Positions 3,988-44,106 of a DNA stretch of 46,489 bases are shown one piece after another. The DNA lies in NCBI GenBank assembly GCA_002774795.1, contig PCYI01000001.1, positions 12,116 through 58,604 of the forward strand, given 5' to 3'. This DNA is from Candidatus Vogelbacteria bacterium CG10_big_fil_rev_8_21_14_0_10_51_16. Lineage in GTDB: Bacteria; Patescibacteriota; Minisyncoccia; Phycocordibacterales; JACRKE01. The first letter of the stretch is position 1. Each line of letters begins with the position of its first letter. Below the pieces are notes generated by a model that was not told the origin of the DNA, made no database searches, and worked only from the letters and a program-made list of their open reading frames with translations. The translations under genes were made by a program, and so were the position numbers.

Positions 3988-5424
3988 ATGGAGTTTTCGA
4001 TAGATAAAAAAGCACAAGGCGCTCTTGCTCGAGCCGGTATCTTGACCACTGGCCACGGGGTCATCAATACGCCCGCTTTTGTAACAGTCGGCACCAAGGC
4101 GACCGTGAAAGCCCTCACCCCAGAAGAGGTGGCCTCTCTGGGCGGAGAGGTGGTGCTCGCAAACACCTACCACCTATACCTCCAACCGGGCGACGAGCTT
4201 ATCTGCAAGTCGGGTGGTCTACATAAATTCATGAACTGGTATGGTCCCACCATGACCGACTCCGGCGGGTTCCAGGTATTCTCCCTTGGCGTAGCGCTTG
4301 GATCGGGAATCTCCAAACTCTCCAAGCCCTACGCCACGCAGATTACCGCAAATGTAGAGCGGATAGGCGCGGATAGAACCCCTCCACGCAATACCCTAAA
4401 AATATTCACAAATGAGCCCGCATCCAGTCCGCGTCAGTCGGCGTCTAGTCCGCAAATGTCCGTGGCGCACGATGGGCCAAAGTCCCTAGTGCGCATCGAT
4501 GAGGATGGCGTGACCTTTCGGTCTCACCTCGACGGCTCGAAGCATCTCTTTACGCCGGAGCGCTCGATGGAGATCCAGCACAATATCGGCGCCGATATCA
4601 TCTTTGCGTTCGACGAATGCACCTCCCCCACAGCATCCTATGACTACCAACGCGAAGCGATGGCCCGCACCCACCGTTGGGCAGAGCGCTCGCTCGCTCG
4701 CCACCGCGAGCTTGAAACAAGCGACCCCCTTCCATACACGCAAGCGTTATTCGGCATCGTACAAGGTGGCCGACACCGAGATTTGCGTGAAGAGAGCGCC
4801 CGTTTCATTGGCTCTCTTGCCTTTGACGGCTTCGGCATCGGTGGCTCTTTTGATAAGGCAGACATGGGAGACGCTGTCTCGTGGGTAAACAGACTCTTGC
4901 CTGAAGAAAAACCGAGACACCTTTTAGGTATCGGCGACCCGTGTGACCTTTTTTTGGCAGTCGAGAACGGTTGCGACCTCTTTGACTGTGTGGCCCCCAC
5001 CCGCCAAGCGCGCAATGGCTCTCTCTACACAGCACAAGGCCGCATCAATATCACGAACGCCCGCTATCGCACCGACCTTTCCCCTATCGACCCCACCTGC
5101 ACCTGTAGTGTTTGTACGGGTGGTATGCCCCATCCCCCGGCCGGGGGAGGGCTGGGGTGGGGTAGATCTTATGGTCCTAACCCATACCTTCCTTCGCAAA
5201 CTGCTTCACCAATCGGCATTAGCAAGATGTCCTACACCCGCGCCTACCTCGCCCACCTTTTTCGGGCCGAAGAGCTCCTCGCCTACCGCTTAGCCTCCAT
5301 CCACAACCTCCACTTTATTGTCAATCTGGTGAAAAAAATGCGCGCCTCACTTCTCAATGACACCTTCTTTAAGCTTAAAGAAGAGTTTCTGCAAACATAC
5401 GGCAATTCAACCACAAACCGATAG
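3988..5424 (+). CDS. tgt: Queuine tRNA-ribosyltransferase (tRNA-guanine transglycosylase) carrying two in-frame insertions
   Basis: MEFSIDKK...ARAGILTTGHGVINTPAFVTVGT, TDSGGFQVFSL, FAFDECTS, zinc motif CTCSVC...H, C-terminal IHNLHF. See findings for the insertions. Confidence 0.9.
   Translation: MEFSIDKKAQGALARAGILTTGHGVINTPAFVTVGTKATVKALTPEEVASLGGEVVLANTYHLYLQPGDELICKSGGLHKFMNWYGPTMTDSGGFQVFSLGVALGSGISKLSKPYATQITANVERIGADRTPPRNTLKIFTNEPASSPRQSASSPQMSVAHDGPKSLVRIDEDGVTFRSHLDGSKHLFTPERSMEIQHNIGADIIFAFDECTSPTASYDYQREAMARTHRWAERSLARHRELETSDPLPYTQALFGIVQGGRHRDLREESARFIGSLAFDGFGIGGSFDKADMGDAVSWVNRLLPEEKPRHLLGIGDPCDLFLAVENGCDLFDCVAPTRQARNGSLYTAQGRINITNARYRTDLSPIDPTCTCSVCTGGMPHPPAGGGLGWGRSYGPNPYLPSQTASPIGISKMSYTRAYLAHLFRAEELLAYRLASIHNLHFIVNLVKKMRASLLNDTFFKLKEEFLQTYGNSTTNR
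4404..4464 (+). repeat. Family D element (ATTCACAA head plus four GTCCGNN units spaced 10/11/10 bp) inside the tgt ORF, in frame
   Basis: Units start at 4427, 4437, 4448 and 4458. Alignable to the intergenic copy at 22478-22542; the four-unit array also matches 7346-7384. Confidence 0.65.
5128..5165. repeat. Family A palindrome core (reverse orientation) inside the tgt ORF, in frame
   Basis: CCCCATCCCCCGGCCGGGGGAGGGCTGGGGTGGGGTAG versus the reverse complement of the intergenic core, CCCCTCCCCCTGGCCAGGGGGAGGTTGGGAGGGGGTAG. Confidence 0.7.
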
Positions 5425-7225: not shown

Positions 7226-7260
7226 CTACCCCCTCCAACTCCCCCTGGCCAGGGGGAGGG
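7226..7260. repeat. Family A palindrome core only (no terminal repeats)
   Basis: CTACCCCCTCCAACTCCCCCTGGCCAGGGGGAGGG. Confidence 0.7.
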
Positions 7261-7757: not shown

Positions 7758-7767
7758 GGTGATGCAA

Positions 7768-7803
7768 GTTTTTAGTTTTTAGTTTGTAGTTTGTAGTTTG
7801 TAG
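7768..7803. repeat. Heptamer tandem repeat (AGTTTKT x5) immediately upstream of the YtxH-like start
   Basis: agtttttagtttttagtttgtagtttgtagtttgtag. In the gene orientation it reads (CTACAAA)3(CTAAAAA)2 and ends about 10 nt before the ATG. Confidence 0.8.
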
Positions 7804-7817
7804 TAAAACAGAGGTGG

Positions 7818-8710: not shown

Positions 8711-9205
8711 GACCGACTTCTGGATTAAACTGTATAAAATACGAGGTGCTTTAGGTCATGCATCCAGGGATGGCCACAGGACAATAATGTCACCATGTCA
8801 AACCCTCACTCTTGCACCATTTTGGGGCGACGAACACCAAAATGGGCATAGCCTTTACTTTCACCCCCGCCGAGCGCTTCAAACGATCTTTGGGAGCTCC
8901 TTCTCTTAGGATAAAACCCTAGAAAAGTAAGCGCACCACTACAGGTGCGTGATGTAAAGGATATCAGATTGTAGTCAAAAAGTCAACCACTGCTCACGAT
9001 TTTAGACTGATTTCCGAATGTCTTATATGGTGTAATGATGGCTACGTAGGGCCGTATACTGTGACTTTTAAGTCTCTTATAACAGTGATACTGTATAACT
9101 ATCTAGTCAACTGTCTGGGGTTGGGTTTTGGGTCCCCAAATGAAGGTTTGTCTTTCCACTCTCCTGGATGTATACTTGACAGATAATCACAAAACTAATC
9201 ACTCC

Positions 9206-9799
9206 ATGCAACCACAATACACTGAGAAAACATTCTCTTTGGGTGCTATGAACGGCCTTTCCGAAAAGCAGATCACGGAGCACCTGAAGCTCTACACAGG
9301 GTATGTAAAAAATGTAAACAGTCTACTTGAGAAGACAGGAGATCTTAAGAAAAGCGAGGCGGAAAATGCCTATGTTCTAGCCGAACTGCGTCGTCGCCTG
9401 GGTTTTGAGTTTAACGGTATGCGTCTACACGAGTACTACTTTGATGGGCTCGGAGGCGATGGCTCACTCAACACCAAAGGCAGTCTCGGCGTGGCCCTCA
9501 CCGAGCGATATGGCTCTCTCGAAGCATGGCGAGAGCACGTGACCACTCTCGGCAAAATGAGGGGTATCGGCTGGGTAATCACCTATTACGACCCTGTCAT
9601 CAAAACATTTCACACAGCTTGGGTTGGTGACCACGATATCGGCCACCTGGGTGGCTTACCTATCATCTCCGCGCTAGATGTCTGGGAGCACGCATTTCTG
9701 TTAGACTACCTTCCTTCGGAGCGTGGTCAGTATATTGAGGCGTACTTCAACAATCTTCGCTGGTCTGCCTTGGAAGAACGATTTGCTTCTGCGCAATAA
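9206..9799 (+). CDS. Fe/Mn superoxide dismutase family protein
   Basis: FNGMRLHEYYF and DVWEHAFLLDY (the D-x-W-E-H motif). Start taken at MQPQYTEK (9206). Confidence 0.75.
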   Translation: MQPQYTEKTFSLGAMNGLSEKQITEHLKLYTGYVKNVNSLLEKTGDLKKSEAENAYVLAELRRRLGFEFNGMRLHEYYFDGLGGDGSLNTKGSLGVALTERYGSLEAWREHVTTLGKMRGIGWVITYYDPVIKTFHTAWVGDHDIGHLGGLPIISALDVWEHAFLLDYLPSERGQYIEAYFNNLRWSALEERFASAQ

Positions 9800-14054: not shown

Positions 14055-14062
14055 GGCGCAAT

Positions 14063-14153
<91 letters not shown>

Positions 14154-17872: not shown

Positions 17873-20800
17873 TTAAGCGGAGAGCGTCTCGTCTTCTGGT
17901 AAATTTTCCAAGCGCACATCAAGCGCAAGTCCCTTTAGTTCACTTAACAGTACATTAAAGGAAGCGGGAATATTTGGCTGACGAATTACTTCCCCTTTTA
18001 CAATCGCGTCGAAAGTGGCGGCTCGACCCTGAATATCATCCGATTTAATTGTGAGCATTTCCCGCAATGTGTGAGAGGCACCATACCCTTCTAGCGCCCA
18101 AACCTCCATTTCTCCAAAACGCTGTCCGCCTCTTTGAGCTTTTCCTCCAAGTGGCTGTTGGGTAATAAGCGAATAGGGGCCGACCGAACGCATGTGAATC
18201 TTGTCTTCCACCATGTGCGATAGCTTAAGCATATACATGTATCCAATGGCGATCCCTTGCTCATACGCTTCACCGGTTTGTCCATCAAAAAGCTTTGTTT
18301 TCCCGGATTCTGAAAAACCGGCACGCGCAAGCTCCTCTTTTATCTCACTCTCCTGAGGACCGAGGAAAGAAGGAGCGATGGCCTGATAACCAAGAGTGTG
18401 CGCCGCGAGCCCTAGGTGCATTTCCAAAATCTGTCCCAAGTTCATGCGCGAAGGCACACCAAGAGGTGTCAAAATAACGTCCACCGGCGTGCCATCGGCC
18501 ATGTATGGCATATCTTCTTCTGGTAAAATGCGAGACACGATACCCTTGTTTCCGTGTCGGCCGGCCATTTTGTCGCCTACCGAAAGGTTCCGCAACTGAG
18601 CCACCTCAATGAATATCTTCTTAATGATGCCGTGTTCCAACTTGTCACCCCGATCGCGTGAAAACACTTTAACGCCGATAACTCTGCCTCGTTTGCCATG
18701 GCCCATGCGAAGAGAACTATCCTTAACATCGCGAGATTTTTCTCCAAAAATAGCCCGCAAAAGCCGCTCTTCCGGCGTTAGTTCGGTCTCTCCTTTGGGG
18801 GTAATCTTGCCCACTAAAATGTCATTGGGGCCAACTTCGGCACCGATGCGAACAACTCCATCTTCGTCTAAATCCTTCAACTTTCCTTCGCCAACATTTG
18901 GAATGTCGTGAGTGGTAATTTCAGGACCAAGCTTGGTATCGCGCACAGCTAGCGAAAACTCCTCAATATGAATAGAGGTAAACTTACTCTGTTTAACTAC
19001 GCGCTCAGAGATAATGATAGCGTCCTCATAATTGGCGCCGCCCCACGACATGAAGGCCACAAACATGTTCTGACCCAGCGCGATTTGACCATGTGCGGTA
19101 GTGGAGGTATCGGCAAGAATGTCACCTTTTTTGACCGCATCGCCAAGATTCACCAATGGCCGATGGTGTGCGGCAGTAAAATCATTTGTACGCGCGAAGC
19201 TTATGAGCGCGTGCTCTTCCCTTGCTCCATCTTTTCCTTTCAGCACAATAGAGCGAGCGTCTACTTTTTCTACAAGGCCATCTAAGCCGGCAATCGGGAG
19301 GCGGCCCGTCGCCGTGGCCACGCGCCCTTCCATACCGGTAGCGACCAGAGGTACCTCCGGGCGAATACAAGGAGTGGCCTGTTTTTGCATATTTGACCCC
19401 ATCAGCGCGCGCGAAGCATTGTTATGCTCTATAAAAGGAATCATGGAAGTGGCGATGGAGTAGGCCTGGTTTGTGGCCACGTCTATGTAGTTAACCTCGT
19501 CTCGCGCCACCATACCGGGCTCACCGGCAACGCGAGCCTCCACTTCGGCTACTTCAATAGTACCGTCAGCCGAAAGCGGGATACCGGCGTGGGCAATGTT
19601 AAAATTCTCTTCGGCAAGAGCATTTATGTACTCAATCTCTTTGGTGACTTTGCCATTCTTTACTTTTGCATACGGAGTTTCTATTATTCCGAAATCATTG
19701 ATGCGGGCATAGGATGACAGAGTGAGAATAAGGCCGATGTTTGGACCCTCCGGAGTCTGAATTGGGCAAACTCTTCCATAGTGTGAGGTGTGCACGTCGC
19801 GCACTTCAAATCCAGCTCGCTCACGAGTAAGACCCCCCGCCCCGAGTGCGGATAGTCGGCGCAAATGTTCTAATTCGGAAAGAACATTTTCTTGGCGCAT
19901 AAACTGAGAAAGCTGGTTGGTTGTAAAAAACTCCTTAATGCGCGCCTGGAGCGCCCGCGGGTTCACTATTTGAACCGGAAGAGTGGTGGACGTGTCAATC
20001 GTAGACATACGGTCCTGAATATGGCGCTTCATTTGTGAAAGTCCTTGGCGCAATTTCAACTGAAGCATCTCCCCCACCAATCGCACTCGGCGCAACCCAA
20101 GATGGTCGATATCGTCCGCCTCTGCCTCCGGAGTGGTGTTTAGTGTGATGACATGACGCACAATGGAAACAAGGTCATCAAAATTAAGTGTCTTCTGGGC
20201 AAGAGCCTGCGCGTCCATTGGCTTTTCAAATCGTTTATTAAAGTGGAAGCGTCCCACCGGAGAGAGGTCGTACCTCTCGGGTGCGAACATGGCTGTAATA
20301 AACTCGCGCGCGGACGCCGGAGTGGCGAGATCGTTGTCGCGTAAACGGCGATATATCTCCACATGAGCATCGTCAGCATTCTTGGCGTGGTCCTTGGCAA
20401 AAGAGTTCTCGATATAGGGCACATCACTCGCAAGGTCGACAAAGGCCGCCTTAATATCGGCATCTGTCTTTCCTTGTCCAAGAACACGAAGAAGCGAAGA
20501 GATGGGGAATTTTCGTCGACGATCGATGCGTACGTAGATGACACCGTCTGCCTCTGTTTCAATCTCTATCCACGCGCCACGCACCGGTACGACTTTCGCG
20601 CCAAAATATCGACGACCCCTAACATCCTCCGCGTTAAAAAATACACCATAACTACGAGCAAGCTGGGGCACCACTACGCGCTCCACACCGTTTACAATAA
20701 ATGTGCCATGCGAGGTCATCAGCGGAAAGTCAGAAAGAAATATCTCCTGCTCCTTCTCCTCGTTCATCACTTTGTTTACAAGCTTCAAGGTGGCCCGCAT

Positions 20801-21149: not shown

Positions 21150-21448
21150 CTCACGTTTTTCGTGATGCTGTTTAATAAAAGAAAGAGTGCACGAAATACT
21201 CTTTGGTTTAAGAGGCTCTCCACAAGAAGCTTTTGCTGCTTGAATGAAGACCCCTATAGTGGCCACCTTCAGACCACTACTATTATCAGACCACTACTAT
21301 TAAGTGGAACGATTGCAAAACAGCCAAAACTCAATCGTGCAATGTTGATAACCAGTATAGTAAAATAGAGAAAGCTTGTCAACCACTTTTCCACTTGCAA
21401 TTCTAGAGAGCCAGCCTACTGGCTCCAGTCCCATTTTGGAAAAATGGA

Positions 21449-21610
21449 GTCTGTCGCCGAATAGACTTTCAAGCTAGTTTTCCCAAAGTGAGTGCGAGAC
21501 GAAGGTGAAAAAACGGAATAGTAGCTTAGCTACCATGAGTATTTTTCACCGAGTCGCAGCCGCACTTTGGGGAAAATAGTCGGAATGGATATTTGGTGAC
21601 AGGCCCAAAT
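21449..21610. repeat. Family C 162-bp rod-like structured repeat, copy 1 (just downstream of the trmD stop)
   Basis: Almost identical to 22929-23090. Nested inverted repeats run along the whole length. Confidence 0.85.
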
Positions 21611-21625
21611 GGGTCCGAGGATGAG

Positions 21626-22363
21626 TTATCGTCTCCTGCTTATCTTCCACTCCTCAATCTTTTTGGCATGTCCACTCAAGAGCACTTTTGGGACCTGGTA
21701 TTTCCTGCCTTGTTTACCCTGACCCGATGGTGGCCATTCAAACAGTTCCGGGCGAGTGTACACCTCGCTCGTTGACACTCTTCTCTCCTCCACCGACGCA
21801 TCTTTTCCAAGCACGCCAGAAATCTGTCGGGCAACTGCGTCAAGCATAATCATTGACGGCAACTCTCCCCCGGTGAGCACGTAGGGACCGACAGAGATCT
21901 CCTTTGCCCGCAAAACCTTTTTCACCCGCGCGTCAATCCCCTCGTAACGGCCACATATCAAAATAATGTCGGTCTGTTTTTTGGCCATTTTTCGCGCCAT
22001 TGTGTTTGTAAACTGCTCCCCCGCAGGAGCAAGTATGAAGGTTTGGAGTTTTGTGTTTTTGTGATTTGTGTTTTGTTTGGTTTTTGCCTGCCCGACTCGA
22101 ATGACCGAGTCGTTCGGGCGGGTGTTTTGAGCTTTGTGTTTTGCCACTTCTACGGCTCGCAAAAGTGGCTCTGCCAACATCACCATTCCCGGCCCGCCAC
22201 CGTACGGCCTCCCGTCTGTCTTGTGCCATTTATCCTTGGCAAAGTCGCGCGGATTATAGAACAGCACTGCTATCTTCCTTGCCTTAATGGCCCGCGCCAA
22301 AATCGAGTCGCCCAAATAGGACGTAAACAGCTTCGGAAAGGTGGTGATGATGTGGAAAGTCAT
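21626..22363 (-). CDS. trmD: tRNA (guanine37-N1)-methyltransferase with an in-frame repeat-derived insertion
   Basis: RPYGGGPGMVM, ICGRYEGIDARV, LTGGELPSMIMLDAV. Confidence 0.92.
   Translation of the reverse strand: MTFHIITTFPKLFTSYLGDSILARAIKARKIAVLFYNPRDFAKDKWHKTDGRPYGGGPGMVMLAEPLLRAVEVAKHKAQNTRPNDSVIRVGQAKTKQNTNHKNTKLQTFILAPAGEQFTNTMARKMAKKQTDIILICGRYEGIDARVKKVLRAKEISVGPYVLTGGELPSMIMLDAVARQISGVLGKDASVEERRVSTSEVYTRPELFEWPPSGQGKQGRKYQVPKVLLSGHAKKIEEWKISRRR
22042..22143. mobile_element. Family B element (CACAAA-rich arms plus CCCGAACGACTCGGTC hairpin) inside the trmD ORF, in frame
   Basis: The core cccgaacgactcggtcattcgagtcgggc (minus strand) matches 33932-33960. The ACTCCAAA / CACAAA motifs match intergenic copies. 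Confidence 0.7.
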
Positions 22364-22440
22364 GCGGGTAGGCTTCGGGCGCTAAGCTCTAGACATTAGC
22401 AGATACAGAATATCATAAGATTGAGGAAAAACGAGCCCCA

Positions 22441-22561: not shown

Positions 22562-22897
22562 CTACAACTGCAAATCCGCCATTGCCTCATCCACCGTCTT
22601 CATGGTAGGCACTGAGGCCCCTCCTTCTGCCGGAGCCAAGCGACCACCATCGGGCTCTTCTATCTTCAAGTTCACTCTCGCGTTGTACTTCATGCCAACG
22701 ACGCGCAAAAGAGTACGGACAGCCTTGGCGGTGTTGCCACTGCGACCGATAACCTTGCCCATGTCCTCTCGATGCACCTTGAGCGTAAGGAGAACGCCCA
22801 TTTCGTCTACCGAGCGATTGACGACCACTTCCTCTGAATGGTCCACGATGGCCTTAATAACATACTCTAAAAACTCCTGGTCCTTTTCTGCTGACAT
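22562..22897 (-). CDS. KH-domain RNA-binding protein (UPF0109/YlqC-like) with a C-terminal extension
   Basis: LEYVIKAIVDH...MGKVIGRSGNTAKAVRTLL. Start at MSAEK (22897). The longer ORF-track version reads through repeat family C. Confidence 0.85.
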   Translation of the reverse strand: MSAEKDQEFLEYVIKAIVDHSEEVVVNRSVDEMGVLLTLKVHREDMGKVIGRSGNTAKAVRTLLRVVGMKYNARVNLKIEEPDGGRLAPAEGGASVPTMKTVDEAMADLQL

Positions 22898-22928
22898 ACG
22901 GATTACTTTCTTATCTGCTACGAATAGG

Positions 22929-23090
22929 GTCTGTCGCCGAATAGACTTTCGAGCTAGTTTCCCCAAAGTGCGAGCGAGACGAAGGTGAAAAAACGGAATA
23001 GTAGCATAGCTACCATGAGTATTTTTCACCGAGTCGCAGTAGCACTTTGGGGAAAATAGTCGGAATGGATATTTGGTGACAGGCCCAAAT
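22929..23090. repeat. Family C 162-bp rod-like structured repeat, copy 2 (rpsP-KH spacer)
   Basis: See 21449-21610. Confidence 0.85.
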
Positions 23091-23137: not shown

Positions 23138-23176
23138 ACAAAAAACACAAAACACAAATATCACAAAACTCCAAAG
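23138..23176. repeat. Family B fragment (CACAAA repeats plus ACTCCAAAG)
   Basis: acaaaaaacacaaaacacaaatatcacaaaactccaaag. Confidence 0.6.
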
Positions 23177-26159: not shown

Positions 26160-26186
26160 TCAGCCTCACTGCCATCTGCGTTGTAT

Positions 26187-26225
26187 CCTCCCTCTCCTGG
26201 CCAGGAGAGGGTAGGGTGAGGTGGG
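26187..26225. repeat. Family A second palindrome module (CCTCTCCTGGCCAGGAGAGGG plus TAGGGTGAGGTGGG)
   Basis: The same module recurs at 29647-29685 and, diverged, inside 43933-44106. Confidence 0.7.
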
Positions 26226-26256
26226 TCGTAAACCTACACCACCATACTTTCATTAG

Positions 26257-26321
26257 CTTTGAGTTACGAAATGCGCGTTTTTCCCTCCCCTGGCCAGGGG
26301 GAGGGGCTTCGTAATTCACAG
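26257..26321. mobile_element. Short (65 bp) family A MITE flanked by a perfect 7-bp target-site duplication TCATTAG
   Basis: TCATTAG at 26250-26256 and at 26322-26328. Terminal inverted repeats are CTTTGAGTTACGAAAT and CTTCGTAATTCACAG. Confidence 0.8.
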
Positions 26322-26365
26322 TCATTAGACCAAGAGGAGGACATCTCGTAACACACAGCCATTAG

Positions 26366-28537: not shown

Positions 28538-28542
28538 GGAAA

Positions 28543-28561
28543 GGCAGTAGGCAGTAGGCAG
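28543..28561. repeat. Heptamer array (GGCAGTA x2.5) ending 5 nt from the smc start codon
   Basis: In the gene orientation it reads TGCCTACTGCCTACTGCC-tttcc-ATG. Confidence 0.75.
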
Positions 28562-28682: not shown

Positions 28683-28824
28683 CTGTGAGTTACGAAATTG
28701 CCCCTCCCCCTGGCCAGGGGGAGGTTGGGAGGGGGTAGGATGCAGAAATACGGCCCAAAATCTACCCCACCCTAGCCCTCCCCTGGCCAAGGGAGGGAAT
28801 AGGTCCGAATTTCGTAATTCAAAG
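28683..28824. mobile_element. Family A MITE (142 bp) with a 6/7 matching flanking 7-mer (TCTCCTA / TGTCCTA)
   Basis: Terminal repeats are CTGTGAGTTACGAAATT and AATTTCGTAATTCAAAG. There are two internal GC palindromes. Confidence 0.8.
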
Positions 28825-28827
28825 TGT

Positions 28828-28857
28828 CCTACTGCCTACTCACTACTCACTACTGCC
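28828..28857. repeat. Heptamer arm (CCTACTG-type), inverted relative to 28543-28561
   Basis: cctactgcctactcactactcactactgcc abuts the rnc stop region. Confidence 0.7.
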
Positions 28858-29646: not shown

Positions 29647-29732
29647 CCCCTCTCCTGGCCAGGAGAGGGTTAGGGTGAGGTGGGTTGCGGGAAGCCTACC
29701 CCCTCCCAACCTCCCCCTGGCTAGGGGGAGGA
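29647..29732. repeat. Family A palindrome modules (both cores, no terminal repeats)
   Basis: CCCCTCTCCTGGCCAGGAGAGGGTTAGGGTGAGGTGGG ... CTACCCCCTCCCAACCTCCCCCTGGCTAGGGGGAGG. Confidence 0.7.
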
Positions 29733-31033: not shown

Positions 31034-31116
31034 AGTGAATACAGGATACCTCAAATGTAAATAATGAGCAAGTACATAGAGCAAGAGTACCTGATTAACA
31101 GACTGACCTACCCTAA

Positions 31117-31148
31117 AGCACAGAACACAGAACACAAAACTCCAAAAA
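31117..31148. repeat. Family B fragment ((CACAGAA)n ... ACTCCAAAA) upstream of rpmF
   Basis: agcacagaacacagaacacaaaactccaaaaa. Confidence 0.55.
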
Positions 31149-33811: not shown

Positions 33812-33924
33812 ATGAGTGGCTATAACCGCCACCTCTGCCCGGTCCCCGCGACCGGGCTTTCTCTTGCCCGAAAACAGTTATCCCCAGAGACAAAATTGGT
33901 CTGCTATAATGGCGACTACGCAGA

Positions 33925-34068
33925 GCACCAGCCCGAACGACTCGGTCGTTCATGTCGGGCGGACAGAACCCCAAGTACGGTCGCAAAGCACAAAGTCCCA
34001 AAGCACAAGACTCCAAAGAATACAGATGCATTTTTTGAAGTTTTGTGTCATTTGTGCTTTGTGTTTTC
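33925..34068. mobile_element. Family B element (hairpin CCCGAACGACTCGGTCGTTCATGTCGGGC plus inverted CACAAAG-rich arms) in the dnaE 5-prime region
   Basis: The core matches the trmD-internal copy. The arms aaagcacaaagtcccaaagcacaagactccaaag and gaagttttgtgtcatttgtgctttgtgtttt are inverted. Confidence 0.7.
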
Positions 34069-34074
34069 TAAAAT

Positions 34075-37482: not shown

Positions 37483-37613
37483 TAAGGAGCTATACTCACC
37501 ATATGGACCTGTTCAAAAAAACAACCGCGACAACAACGACCACCGCGACTACTTAGCGGGAGTTCTTGTTGTGCGCCACAGGAGCTCCCGCGAGGGGCTT
37601 TTCTTTTGCAACG

Positions 37614-37660
37614 TTTGGAGTTTTGTGTTTTGTGCTTTGTGCTTTGTGCTTTGTGTTTTA
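37614..37660. repeat. Family B fragment (TTTGGAGTTTTGTG plus (CTTTGTG)n) upstream of thrS
   Basis: tttggagttttgtgttttgtgctttgtgctttgtgctttgtgtttt. Confidence 0.6.
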
Positions 37661-37703
37661 ATACCCTATCGTGCTTTACTACTCATCATACAAAAGCATT
37701 ATT

Positions 37704-41045: not shown

Positions 41046-41074
41046 CTACTGCCCACTGCCTACTCCATACTGCC
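41046..41074 (+). repeat. Four CTACTGC-type heptamers abutting the DUF3095 start codon
   Basis: ctactgc ccactgc ctactcc atactgc c ATG. Confidence 0.7.
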
Positions 41075-42262
41075 ATGAATCCCGAAGACTTCTACAAATC
41101 CATCCCCGCTCTTGAAAAGTTCGCTGATGTAGCGGATTTTTCGAGGTATGTGCCGGCGCCAGACGACTGGTATGTGGTGGTGACCGATATTAAGGGCTCT
41201 ACTAAAGCGGTGGAGGCGGGAAAGTATAAAGAGGTGAACGCCGTGGGAGCGGCCTCCATCATCGCTGTCTTAAACGTGGCCAAGGAGGTGGACATCCCTT
41301 TTGTTTTCGGCGGAGACGGCGCCACCATGCTCATCCCGCCTACCCTTGTCGAAGCCACCAAAGGGGCGCTCGCCGCCGCCCGCGAACTCTCCCTCGACTA
41401 CTTCGAGCTTGAGCTACGAGTAGGGCTTGTGCCACTTACAAAGATTCCCCCCGAAAGTAAAATCCGCGTAGCCAAGTTTCGGGCTTCGCCCCACTACCAT
41501 CAAGCCATGTTTGCCGGAAACGGCGTGGTGATAGCCGAGAAACTCATTAAAGACCCGGCTACAAACACCCTGTACGAGGTGCCGGCCGACCACCCAAGCA
41601 GTGGGCAGTTTAGAGGTTTTGAGTGCCGTTGGAATGATATCGCCTCCCCGCACGGCGAGACGGTGGCGCTTTTGGTAAAAGTGGTTGCCGGCGACATCAA
41701 AGAGCGGGCCGCGCGTTACTGCGATATCCTCGCCGAGATCGAGCGTATCTACGGCAGTGAAGCCGACTACCACCCCATTACCGTCAAACATCTCACCCTT
41801 GTTACCCAACCGCCAAAACTAAACACTGAGACCTACATCCGCGCTGGGCGCAAAAGTGGCCGCAAAGGAGATCTTGAGCGCTTTTGGTATCGCACTAAAA
41901 TTTGGCTCACCGACCTTTATGTCAATCTCGCCATGCGCACTCCTTTCAGTAAAAACGACTTTAATTTGTCCGTTTACAAAAATCTGCTTGTGGCCACCTG
42001 CGACTTCCGTAAGTACGACGATGCCCTGCGCATGATTCTTGCCGGTACCCCCGCGCAACGCCGCGAGCTCGAAGAGTATCTAGAAGAGCTCCACCGTGAT
42101 GGCACGCTCGCTTACGGCACCTTCGCTACCGACCGGGCCCTCATGACCTGTCTCGTCTTCGAGCGCTATGGTAAACAGGTGCACTTCATAGACGGCGCCG
42201 ATGGTGGCTACACGCGAGCTTCAAAGCCATTTAAGGAAAGACTAAAAAAGCTGTCGGCATAA
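41075..42262 (+). CDS. DUF3095-family protein (N-terminal nucleotidyl-cyclase-like region)
   Basis: WYVVVTDIKGSTKAVEAGKYKEVNAVGAASIIAVLN...FVFGGDGATMLIP. The family assignment is from memory, not from a search. Confidence 0.5.
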   Translation: MNPEDFYKSIPALEKFADVADFSRYVPAPDDWYVVVTDIKGSTKAVEAGKYKEVNAVGAASIIAVLNVAKEVDIPFVFGGDGATMLIPPTLVEATKGALAAARELSLDYFELELRVGLVPLTKIPPESKIRVAKFRASPHYHQAMFAGNGVVIAEKLIKDPATNTLYEVPADHPSSGQFRGFECRWNDIASPHGETVALLVKVVAGDIKERAARYCDILAEIERIYGSEADYHPITVKHLTLVTQPPKLNTETYIRAGRKSGRKGDLERFWYRTKIWLTDLYVNLAMRTPFSKNDFNLSVYKNLLVATCDFRKYDDALRMILAGTPAQRRELEEYLEELHRDGTLAYGTFATDRALMTCLVFERYGKQVHFIDGADGGYTRASKPFKERLKKLSA

Positions 42263-43932: not shown

Positions 43933-44106
43933 CTTTGAGTTACGAAATGTGAGTTTTTCCCTCCCCTGGTCAGGGAAGGAGTTCCTCCCTCTCCTGCCCG
44001 AGGAGAGGGTTGGGGTGGGGTGGGAGGGGTGGGGTAGCTTTAGAGCCATACTACCCCCTCCCAACCTCCCCCTGGCCAGGGGGAGGGGCAATTTCGAAAT
44101 TCACAG
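43933..44106. mobile_element. Full-length (174 bp) family A MITE flanked by a perfect 7-bp target-site duplication TCTAAAT
   Basis: TCTAAAT at 43926-43932 and at 44107-44113. Terminal repeats are CTTTGAGTTACGAAAT and AATTTCGAAATTCACAG. There are three internal GC palindromes. Confidence 0.85.

Follow-up and report, generated by a model that had tools for sequence, protein, structure and literature searches.

A repeat-like stretch translated within a loop of TrmD in an uncultured groundwater bacterium of Candidatus Vogelbacteria

The trmD gene and its repeat-like loop

The DNA analysed here, a stretch of 46,489 nucleotides (hereafter, the window) from an uncultured groundwater bacterium of Candidatus Vogelbacteria, carries on its minus strand a trmD gene in which a repeat-like segment is translated. 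The gene order is rpsP-KH-trmD-rpoB-rpoC-dnaG-rpoD, and the synteny of rpsP-KH-trmD-rpoB is kept in relatives. The product of trmD scores 123 bits against Pfam PF01746 (SPOUT class IV methyltransferase; cutoff 27.3) and matches solved TrmD structures with a best E-value of 7e-41 in a search of PDB sequences. It is identical to protein P0001 (Candidatus Vogelbacteria bacterium CG10_big_fil_rev_8_21), labelled 'hypothetical' at NCBI, a label that the repeat insert explains. The gene and the parts of the repeat-like stretch are listed below; L009 is the locus of the closest ortholog without the hairpin.

21626-22363, minus strand: trmD, encoding tRNA (guanine37-N1)-methyltransferase (245 amino acids), host gene of the repeat stretch
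22042-22144, minus strand: whole repeat-like loop stretch, codons A74-Q107, composed of left arm, hairpin and right arm; aligns to 33912-34017
22121-22144, minus strand: left arm GCAAAACACAAAGCTCAAAACACC, mostly native heptamer tract, common to the hairpin-less L009 in a codon-by-codon comparison
22087-22120, minus strand: GC-rich hairpin CGCCCGAACGACTCGGTCATTCGAGTCGGGCAGG, translated as RPNDSVIRVGQ(A)
22083-22125, minus strand: discrete hairpin unit of 43 nucleotides (nt), CACC...GGGCAGGCAAAA, with a 5-nt CAAAA direct repeat at its borders
22053-22121, minus strand: 69 nt, or 23 codons (about R82-T104), extra relative to L009 in the codon alignment
22042-22086, minus strand: right arm CAAAAACCAAACAAAACACAAATCACAAAAACACAAAACTCCAAA, an expanded heptamer tract whose last ~14 nt are native

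The reading frame is open throughout the stretch, as the first-pass annotation of this DNA had stated. Both arms are rich in CACAAA on the same strand, i.e., they are direct and not inverted. The hairpin unit is an imperfect palindrome of the 20-40 nt kind, and the hairpin folds as RNA with -20.4 kcal/mol (z = -3.8). No frame of the A/C-rich sense strand of the element contains a stop codon, while on the antisense strand one frame of the three is open. The plus strand, antisense to trmD, is terminator-like at 22096-22118, where a hairpin is followed by a T-rich tail. Scans of the window against Rfam and for tRNAs gave no match to this stretch or elsewhere. An open reading frame (ORF) of 118 codons lies antisense to trmD (22043-22399, plus strand), with a TTG start at the outer end of the element and first residues FCVFVICVLFGFCL, a hydrophobic translation of the T-rich strand. 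We rejected it as a real gene, given its position antisense to a conserved gene and the lack of any support, and it is probably spurious.

The alignment of the window protein to the TrmD of Haemophilus influenzae is interrupted at this point: residues 78 and 109 of the window protein are matched to residues 78 and 85 of the H. influenzae structure, which leaves 30 loop residues in the former versus 6 in the latter. The first-pass annotation was thus right that the loop is far longer than in the usual TrmD, but the ~16 residues given there as normal do not apply to this clade, in which the distance between the flanking motifs GGPGMV and GRYEG ranges from 56 to 87 residues. Beyond the loop, residues A112-P113-A114-G115 (APAG 112-115) pair with SPQG 88-91 of the H. 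influenzae enzyme, in line with an xPxG cover loop, and R179 pairs with Arg154. In H. influenzae, SPQG 88-91 is the 'cover loop' that closes over S-adenosylmethionine (AdoMet) in the trefoil knot (PMC5372744). Further along (trmD residues 190-196, about 21776-21796), phmmer places Arg194 opposite the catalytic Asp169 of H. influenzae; the equivalent column, which follows an invariant EE, varies throughout the Parcubacteria set, and on this alignment the mismatch is probably a one-residue register shift. Parcubacteria TrmDs also stop about 36 residues earlier than the H. influenzae enzyme.

Repeats are a classic source of misassembly, and the insert might be an assembly chimera of repeat copies or the mark of a decaying trmD pseudogene, for which the 'hypothetical' label could also be taken as a sign. 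We regard this as very improbable. Six contigs, assembled independently and with different assemblers from several ENA and JGI samples, carry the 738-nt gene without a single difference, which argues that the insert is no assembly artefact. The ORF is intact, and in an alignment of 32 close orthologs the window TrmD retains every clade-invariant residue, including the intact and invariant GGGPGM, GRYEG and TGGELP motifs, the xPxG cover loop and the counterpart of Arg154, likewise invariant; the conserved synteny of the locus also speaks against this reading.

Copies of the repeat between genes of the same genome

Sequences homologous to the arms, here called family B, and a second copy of the hairpin lie in intergenic regions of the window:

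33922-33968, plus strand: second hairpin copy, intergenic, upstream of dnaE (nhmmer E = 7e-13)
33975-34067, plus strand: full family-B palindrome, with an A-rich arm ending ACTCCAAA, a 16-nt spacer and an inverted T-rich arm TTTGAAGTTTTGTG...
23138-23175, plus strand: family-B arm between rpsP and KH; on the minus strand, in which the genes run, it reads TTTGGAGTTTTGTG... and lies upstream of a TATAAT box
31115-31146, plus strand: family-B arm upstream of rpmF
37605-37661, plus strand: family-B arm directly upstream of thrS, with TTTGGAG followed by (TTTTGTG/CTTTGTG) repeats

The first-pass annotation had proposed that the extra DNA in trmD is homologous to an intergenic element at about 33925-34017, and several comparisons bear this out. 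The 16-mer CCCGAACGACTCGGTC occurs at exactly two sites in the window, 22103-22118 (minus) and 33932-33947 (plus), and none of 100 shuffled sequences had three or more matches to it at up to three mismatches. A repeat search of the window paired 22076-22129 with 33921-33974 (54 nt, 80%), and alignment with MAFFT extended the similarity between the trmD stretch and the intergenic copy to ~95 nt, from CACC through the hairpin and up to ACTCCAAA. The trmD hairpin shares an exact 17-mer with the intergenic element (33922-34017) and is 89% identical to it over 38 nt (33926-33960). With blastn-short, the hairpin gave E = 5e-5 and the arms E = 1e-5 to 2e-4 against 37613-37647 and 23142-23175, to which the right arm is 92% identical over 36 nt and 91% identical over 34 nt, respectively. 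The similarity to the intergenic copies is thus significant under a proper alignment. A profile of the hairpin searched with nhmmer found just two copies in the window, each with an E-value of about 7e-13 (6e-13 for the one in trmD).

Arm fragments of the form CACAAA...ACTCCAAA were located at 23138-23175, 31115-31146, 34034-34067 and 37605-37652, that is, upstream of KH, rpmF, dnaE and thrS (where the arm extends to 37661), the four genes for which they had been noted before. The complete form of family B is an inverted arm pair, in which CACAAA...ACTCCAAA is followed by a 14-16-nt spacer and TTTGGAGTTTTGTG...; the rpsP-KH spacer of L009 has the same architecture as window 33975-34067, at 9238-9318 and directly after the rpsP stop codon. 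The window palindrome stops 8 nt short of the dnaE ATG, and a sigma-70-like match, GTGTCA-18-TAAAAT, lies inside its T-rich arm (34045-34074).

The intergenic hairpin copy lies 11.8 kb from the one in trmD and has homologous flanks on both sides, so the two copies descend from one composite of arm plus hairpin. We rejected an origin of the intergenic copy by duplication of part of trmD, as the similarity ends at the borders of the element and the arms occur at several other loci. In all, ~56 kb of this genome contain two hairpins and about seven arms. The two parts also occur apart from each other. In another organism (L130), a hairpin 95% identical to the trmD hairpin over 38 nt lies in an intergenic region without arms, and the 20-mer CACAAAGCTCAAAAACCAAA occurs outside the window in the same genome (L136) in an arm without a hairpin. 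On this distribution, the hairpin would be a discrete module resembling the repetitive extragenic palindromic (REP) sequences, and the arms a separate repeat class.

Wider searches added little. The 17-mer GCCCGAACGACTCGGTC had at least 118 matches in genome contigs, which are chance matches in high-GC genomes, and no locus among the matches listed was both low in G+C and rich in CACAAA. In a scan of metagenomes with GCCCGAACGACTCGGN8GTCGGGC, L130 was the single match, in a scan that did not return the window's own locus either. A protein census with the five open translations of the hairpin gave no candidates, the queries being very short, and phmmer with the equally short 35-residue loop matched nothing among 1.84 billion representatives.

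Heptamer tracts in the TrmD loop and the gain in the window lineage

To place the stretch among its relatives, we aligned the 32 close orthologs, extracted the loops of the 120 best orthologs, and compared the trmD DNA of the window with that of eight syntenic orthologs (L007, L009, L011, L131, L132, L133, L134 and L135). The GGPGMV-to-GRYEG distance in the window, 82 residues, is the fourth longest of the 120, among which the spread amounts to 31 residues, and about 45% of these orthologs have at least 10 extra residues. The alignment of TrmD orthologs, which the first-pass annotation had proposed as a check, therefore confirms the long loop of the window but also shows the loop to be hypervariable.

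The DNA of these loops is itself repetitive. In the hairpin-less L009 (protein P0002), the loop is encoded by GCAAAGCACAAAGCCAAAAGCACAAAACTCCAAACC (KHKAKSTKLQT), which is a family-B arm and matches, with 94% identity over 34 nt, an arm in the rpsP-KH spacer of its own locus. In L131, (AAAACTM) x5 encodes KLKTKNSKLKT; in L132, (ACTCCAA) x3 is followed by (AAAGCTN) x4, with a 16/16-nt match just upstream of the locus's own trmD; and in L134, (AAAACTC) x3 is joined to a 31-nt piece 90% identical to its own rpsP-KH spacer (9190-9220). The L135 loop consists of (GAATATA) repeats and their inverse, that of L007 of (ATTTCCA) x3 and a hairpin different from the window's, that of L011 of arms like those of L007 with yet another GC hairpin, and that of L133 of GC palindromes only. 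The loop hairpins of L007 and L011 have no further copies within their 20-kb loci.

A period of 7 in the loop is the strongest or joint-strongest short-period repeat of the whole gene in 7 of the 9 trmD genes; in the window loop, period 8 scores 0.74 and period 7 scores 0.71. Among distinct KLKx...KLKy motifs, whose x residues are 21 nt apart, x equals y in 8 of 10, a sign that points to a DNA repeat rather than to protein constraint. At the level of the nucleotide sequence, these comparisons show the loop between the PLxxA helix and the cover-loop strand as a tandem heptanucleotide tract in this Parcubacteria clade, with units such as AAAACTC, AAGCACA and ACTCCAA, and show the same heptamer families in the intergenic spacers of the same genomes. 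Judged from these sequences, loops encoded by repeats appear to be the rule among the relatives examined, and the TrmD loop looks like a tolerated hot spot of recombination rather than the site of a one-off accident.

Further tandem tracts of 7-nt units in the window, (AGGCAGT)n or (CTACTGC)n and (TTTTTAG/TTTGTAG)n, lie at 14058-14097, 28542-28561, 28827-28855, 41046-41074 and 7765-7807. Several of them end at start codons (smc, the gene at 41075, dnaG), and relatives have similar tracts, e.g., L007 at 18515-18591. Such tracts seem to be generally present in the leaders of these genomes.

Since the hairpin-less L009 already carries an arm-like loop, the arms in the window trmD are largely native; the terminal AAAACTCCAAACC of the right arm, for instance, is common to both genes. 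The 102 nt first described as a single foreign insert therefore overstate the change, and the codon alignment shows a gain in the window lineage of 69 nt (22053-22121), made up of the 43-nt GC-rich palindromic unit bounded by CAAAA and 26 nt of extra arm. When the 43-nt unit is removed in silico, the sequence becomes CACAAAGCTCAAAAACCAAA, and this exact 20-mer is present at L136 6835-6854, in a paralogous family-B arm of the same genome, ~2.8 kb past the right end of the window.

We consider it fairly probable that two kinds of repeat DNA make up the stretch 22042-22144, which would be translated as a composite within a surface loop of a functional TrmD. The hairpin, as a small REP-like module, would first have inserted in an intergenic arm, and a patch of arm plus hairpin may then have been transferred to trmD in a single event of homologous recombination or gene conversion. 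The partners would have been the native trmD tract and an intergenic family-B arm with a hairpin, which have in common GCACAAAGC on the left and CACAAAACTCCAAA on the right. We infer a one-step import of 69 nt (43 + 26), since a gain of just 43 nt would put an essential gene out of frame; selection would retain only products divisible by three. Only the A/C-rich orientation would be survivable, being free of stops in every frame. As the opposite strand is open in a single frame, this may also account for trmD containing no more than a half-element with direct arms.

Several points weigh against this reading. Just two hairpin copies are seen in the ~56 kb, and with two copies the direction of transfer, from the intergenic region to trmD or the reverse, is not readable. 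Both the CAAAA repeat at the borders of the 43-nt unit and the empty-site 20-mer lie in repetitive sequence, and the L136 arm would look identical to an empty site if it had lost DNA between CAAAA repeats by deletion. The hairpin of the syntenic L007 differs from that of the window, yet its 5' half ACCCGTCCGAATG is in the same frame (TRPN), which would also fit an old insertion with later losses. Finally, that the insert is tolerated and neutral, as discussed below, rests on an AlphaFold2 model from an alignment of 32 sequences.

A different route would be direct transposition into trmD, as a unit, of a ~100-nt 'family B' element akin to MITEs (miniature transposable elements with inverted repeats), in frame by chance and now translated in the manner of the Rickettsia palindromic elements. 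The alignment of ~95 nt to the intergenic copy, which takes in the hairpin and its two flanks, would fit such an event, as would the short direct repeat (CAAAA or AAAACAC) bordering the gained segment, and in-frame MITE insertions are documented (PMC10969869). There are also genes resembling those of REP-associated tyrosine transposases (RAYTs), of the Y1 type, nearby in relatives. However, these Y1 proteins, encoded between smc and rnr, score 22-41 bits against a RAYT cutoff of 80 (NCBIfam), the hairpins alongside them are unrelated to that of trmD, and tblastn found no Y1/RAYT gene in the window. The hairpin-less ortholog already has the outer parts of the supposed element, to which the loop of distant relatives is homologous, the trmD arms are direct, and only two hairpin copies were found in the 56 kb. 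We thus find this route unlikely.

A further reading, which we hold to be rather unlikely, is that the heptamer tract of the TrmD loop is an ancient feature of the nucleotide sequence across Parcubacteria, continually exchanging sequence with intergenic heptamer tracts specific to each genome. The partners of exchange would notably be the rpsP-KH spacer of the same operon and gene leaders. If true, one loop of an essential enzyme would be a permanent landing pad for repeat DNA, possibly kept for a function in cis of the DNA or RNA, or by a dedicated process that would make heptamer tracts in these genomes.

We modelled the window TrmD with AlphaFold2 on the 32-sequence alignment (mean predicted local distance difference test score, pLDDT, of 74.7). 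The model has a confident core that matches TrmD structures in Foldseek (E = 2e-20, template modelling score 0.63), with a helix at residues 64-80, coil at 81-106 (pLDDT below 50 at 86-103) and a strand at 107-117. This strand runs to A112-G115, the counterpart of the cover loop, and the insert is thus predicted at the far end of the strand, outside the knot. The structure prediction, which had been suggested earlier as a way to place the insert, locates it in a disordered coil, one strand upstream of the AdoMet cover loop, on the predicted surface and with the fold intact. From the model, the 23 extra residues RPNDSVIRVGQAKTKQNTNHKNT would be a hydrophilic, disordered and tolerated loop, most likely neutral passengers rather than a new function.

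The alternative is that the insert, or the whole heptamer tract, is kept for a function, be it as a Lys/Asn/Thr-rich flexible arm aiding tRNA binding, as an element of the mRNA or DNA such as a pause or regulatory hairpin within trmD, or as the terminator-like signal on the antisense strand. A repeat-encoded loop is found at the same position across lineages with only 55-60% TrmD identity, it is basic, as expected of a surface that binds RNA, and the hairpin is stable and followed by a T-rich tail on the plus strand. Yet close relatives differ freely in the sequence and length of the loop and even in whether it has a hairpin, the loop of many orthologs is minimal, the AlphaFold2 model gives the loop no structure, the second hairpin copy lacks a T-rich tail on either strand, and Rfam has no matching family. 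Taken together, we regard a selected function, in any of these variants, as rather unlikely.

If the stretch is indeed a translated composite of repeat DNA, non-coding repeat DNA comes to be translated, in the very small genomes of uncultured Patescibacteria, inside an essential and otherwise highly conserved enzyme, and such read-through of repeats recurs at one TrmD loop. For the study of protein evolution, the orthologs offer a natural series of loop insertions, from 0 to 31 residues, beside the AdoMet cover loop of an enzyme that is an antibiotic target. For genome biology, the heptamer tracts would be an undescribed and abundant class of repeats in these genomes.

Other repeats of the window and comparison with known systems

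Two further repeat families stand near trmD and elsewhere in the window. A fully palindromic element of ~164 nt, with ends GGGTCTGTCGCC...GGTGACAGGCCC, is present in two copies that are 95% identical, at 21447-21610 and 22927-23090; as single-stranded DNA it folds with -44 kcal/mol (z = -8.9), and it looks like a real MITE. The first copy lies 16 nt past the trmD stop codon. The second is located upstream of KH and overlaps codons 1-44 of the long KH ORF; the true start of KH is therefore probably M45, at 22897. The other family consists of GC-rich, REP-like palindromes CCCTCCCCTGGCCAGGGGGAGGG, often with GGGTGGGGTAG-like flanks, of which there are at least 11 copies in the 46 kb:

36-67, 5130-5152, 7229-7260, 26190-26212, 26283-26305 and 28703-28725: CCCTCCCCTGGCCAGGGGGAGGG palindromes
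28776-28798, 29648-29670, 29701-29732, 43959-43981 and 44056-44087: CCCTCCCCTGGCCAGGGGGAGGG palindromes, continued

Two of these palindromes fill the rnr-smc spacer (26160-26365), the place where L007, L009 and L011 have RAYT-like Y1 genes. In L007 (5380-5475), two hairpin copies, caccgagatccaatctcggt and accgagattggatctcggtg, precede the Y1 transposase gene; they are REP-like and unrelated to the trmD-loop hairpin.

Our searches of the literature on repeats in the candidate phyla radiation (CPR) or Parcubacteria, on RAYTs in CPR and on coding heptanucleotide repeats returned nothing relevant. Known systems share some features with the trmD stretch. As in the simple sequence repeats of coding regions, a 7-nt tandem tract lies inside an ORF and differs in length between lineages. 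Contingency loci, in contrast, affect surface or restriction genes, whereas the host here is an essential housekeeping enzyme, every observed state is in frame, and the six contigs show no variation of length within the population; given this lack of variation in repeat number, the behaviour of the trmD tract is not that of a contingency locus. Intragenic ERIC, BOX, Correia and other MITE sequences are likewise short, non-autonomous repeats able to fuse in frame with ORFs, but those have inverted repeats at their termini as well as defined target duplications. In trmD the arms are direct and partly native, so the piece is not a classical MITE, and the 5-nt CAAAA repeat that flanks the 43-nt unit, as a target-site duplication might, lies within a repetitive tract.

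The hairpin resembles REP sequences and REPINs in being an imperfect GC-rich palindrome of 34-43 nt, normally extragenic, and relatives carry RAYT-like Y1 genes at a syntenic position. A conserved 5' GTAG/GGAG tetranucleotide is a defining feature of REP sequences; it is absent here, where the unit begins with CACC-CGCCCGAACG. The copy number seen is low in comparison with REP/RAYT systems, and REPs are extragenic by definition, while the trmD hairpin is translated.

The closest analogue appears to be the Rickettsia palindromic elements (RPEs), to whose families we do not assign the window element. According to Ogata et al. (2000), as cited in PMC10969869, RPEs are small palindromic repeats inserted in frame in housekeeping genes. 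To the extent of that account, both are palindromic repeats found between genes and in frame within a conserved housekeeping gene, and both are translated as an extra peptide segment apparently compatible with the fold. On the same account, they differ in size and number: the gained segment is 69 nt here against about 100-150 nt for RPEs, and two hairpin copies are seen here against dozens. No sequence relationship is claimed, the host belongs to an unrelated phylum, Patescibacteria, the insertion site here is itself a repeat tract that has been recurrently remodelled in many lineages, and the likely route is recombination with arm homology instead of transposition. The translation of repeat DNA within genes is thus already known, and what is new is the Patescibacteria host and a loop that is itself a conserved hot spot of heptamer repeats.

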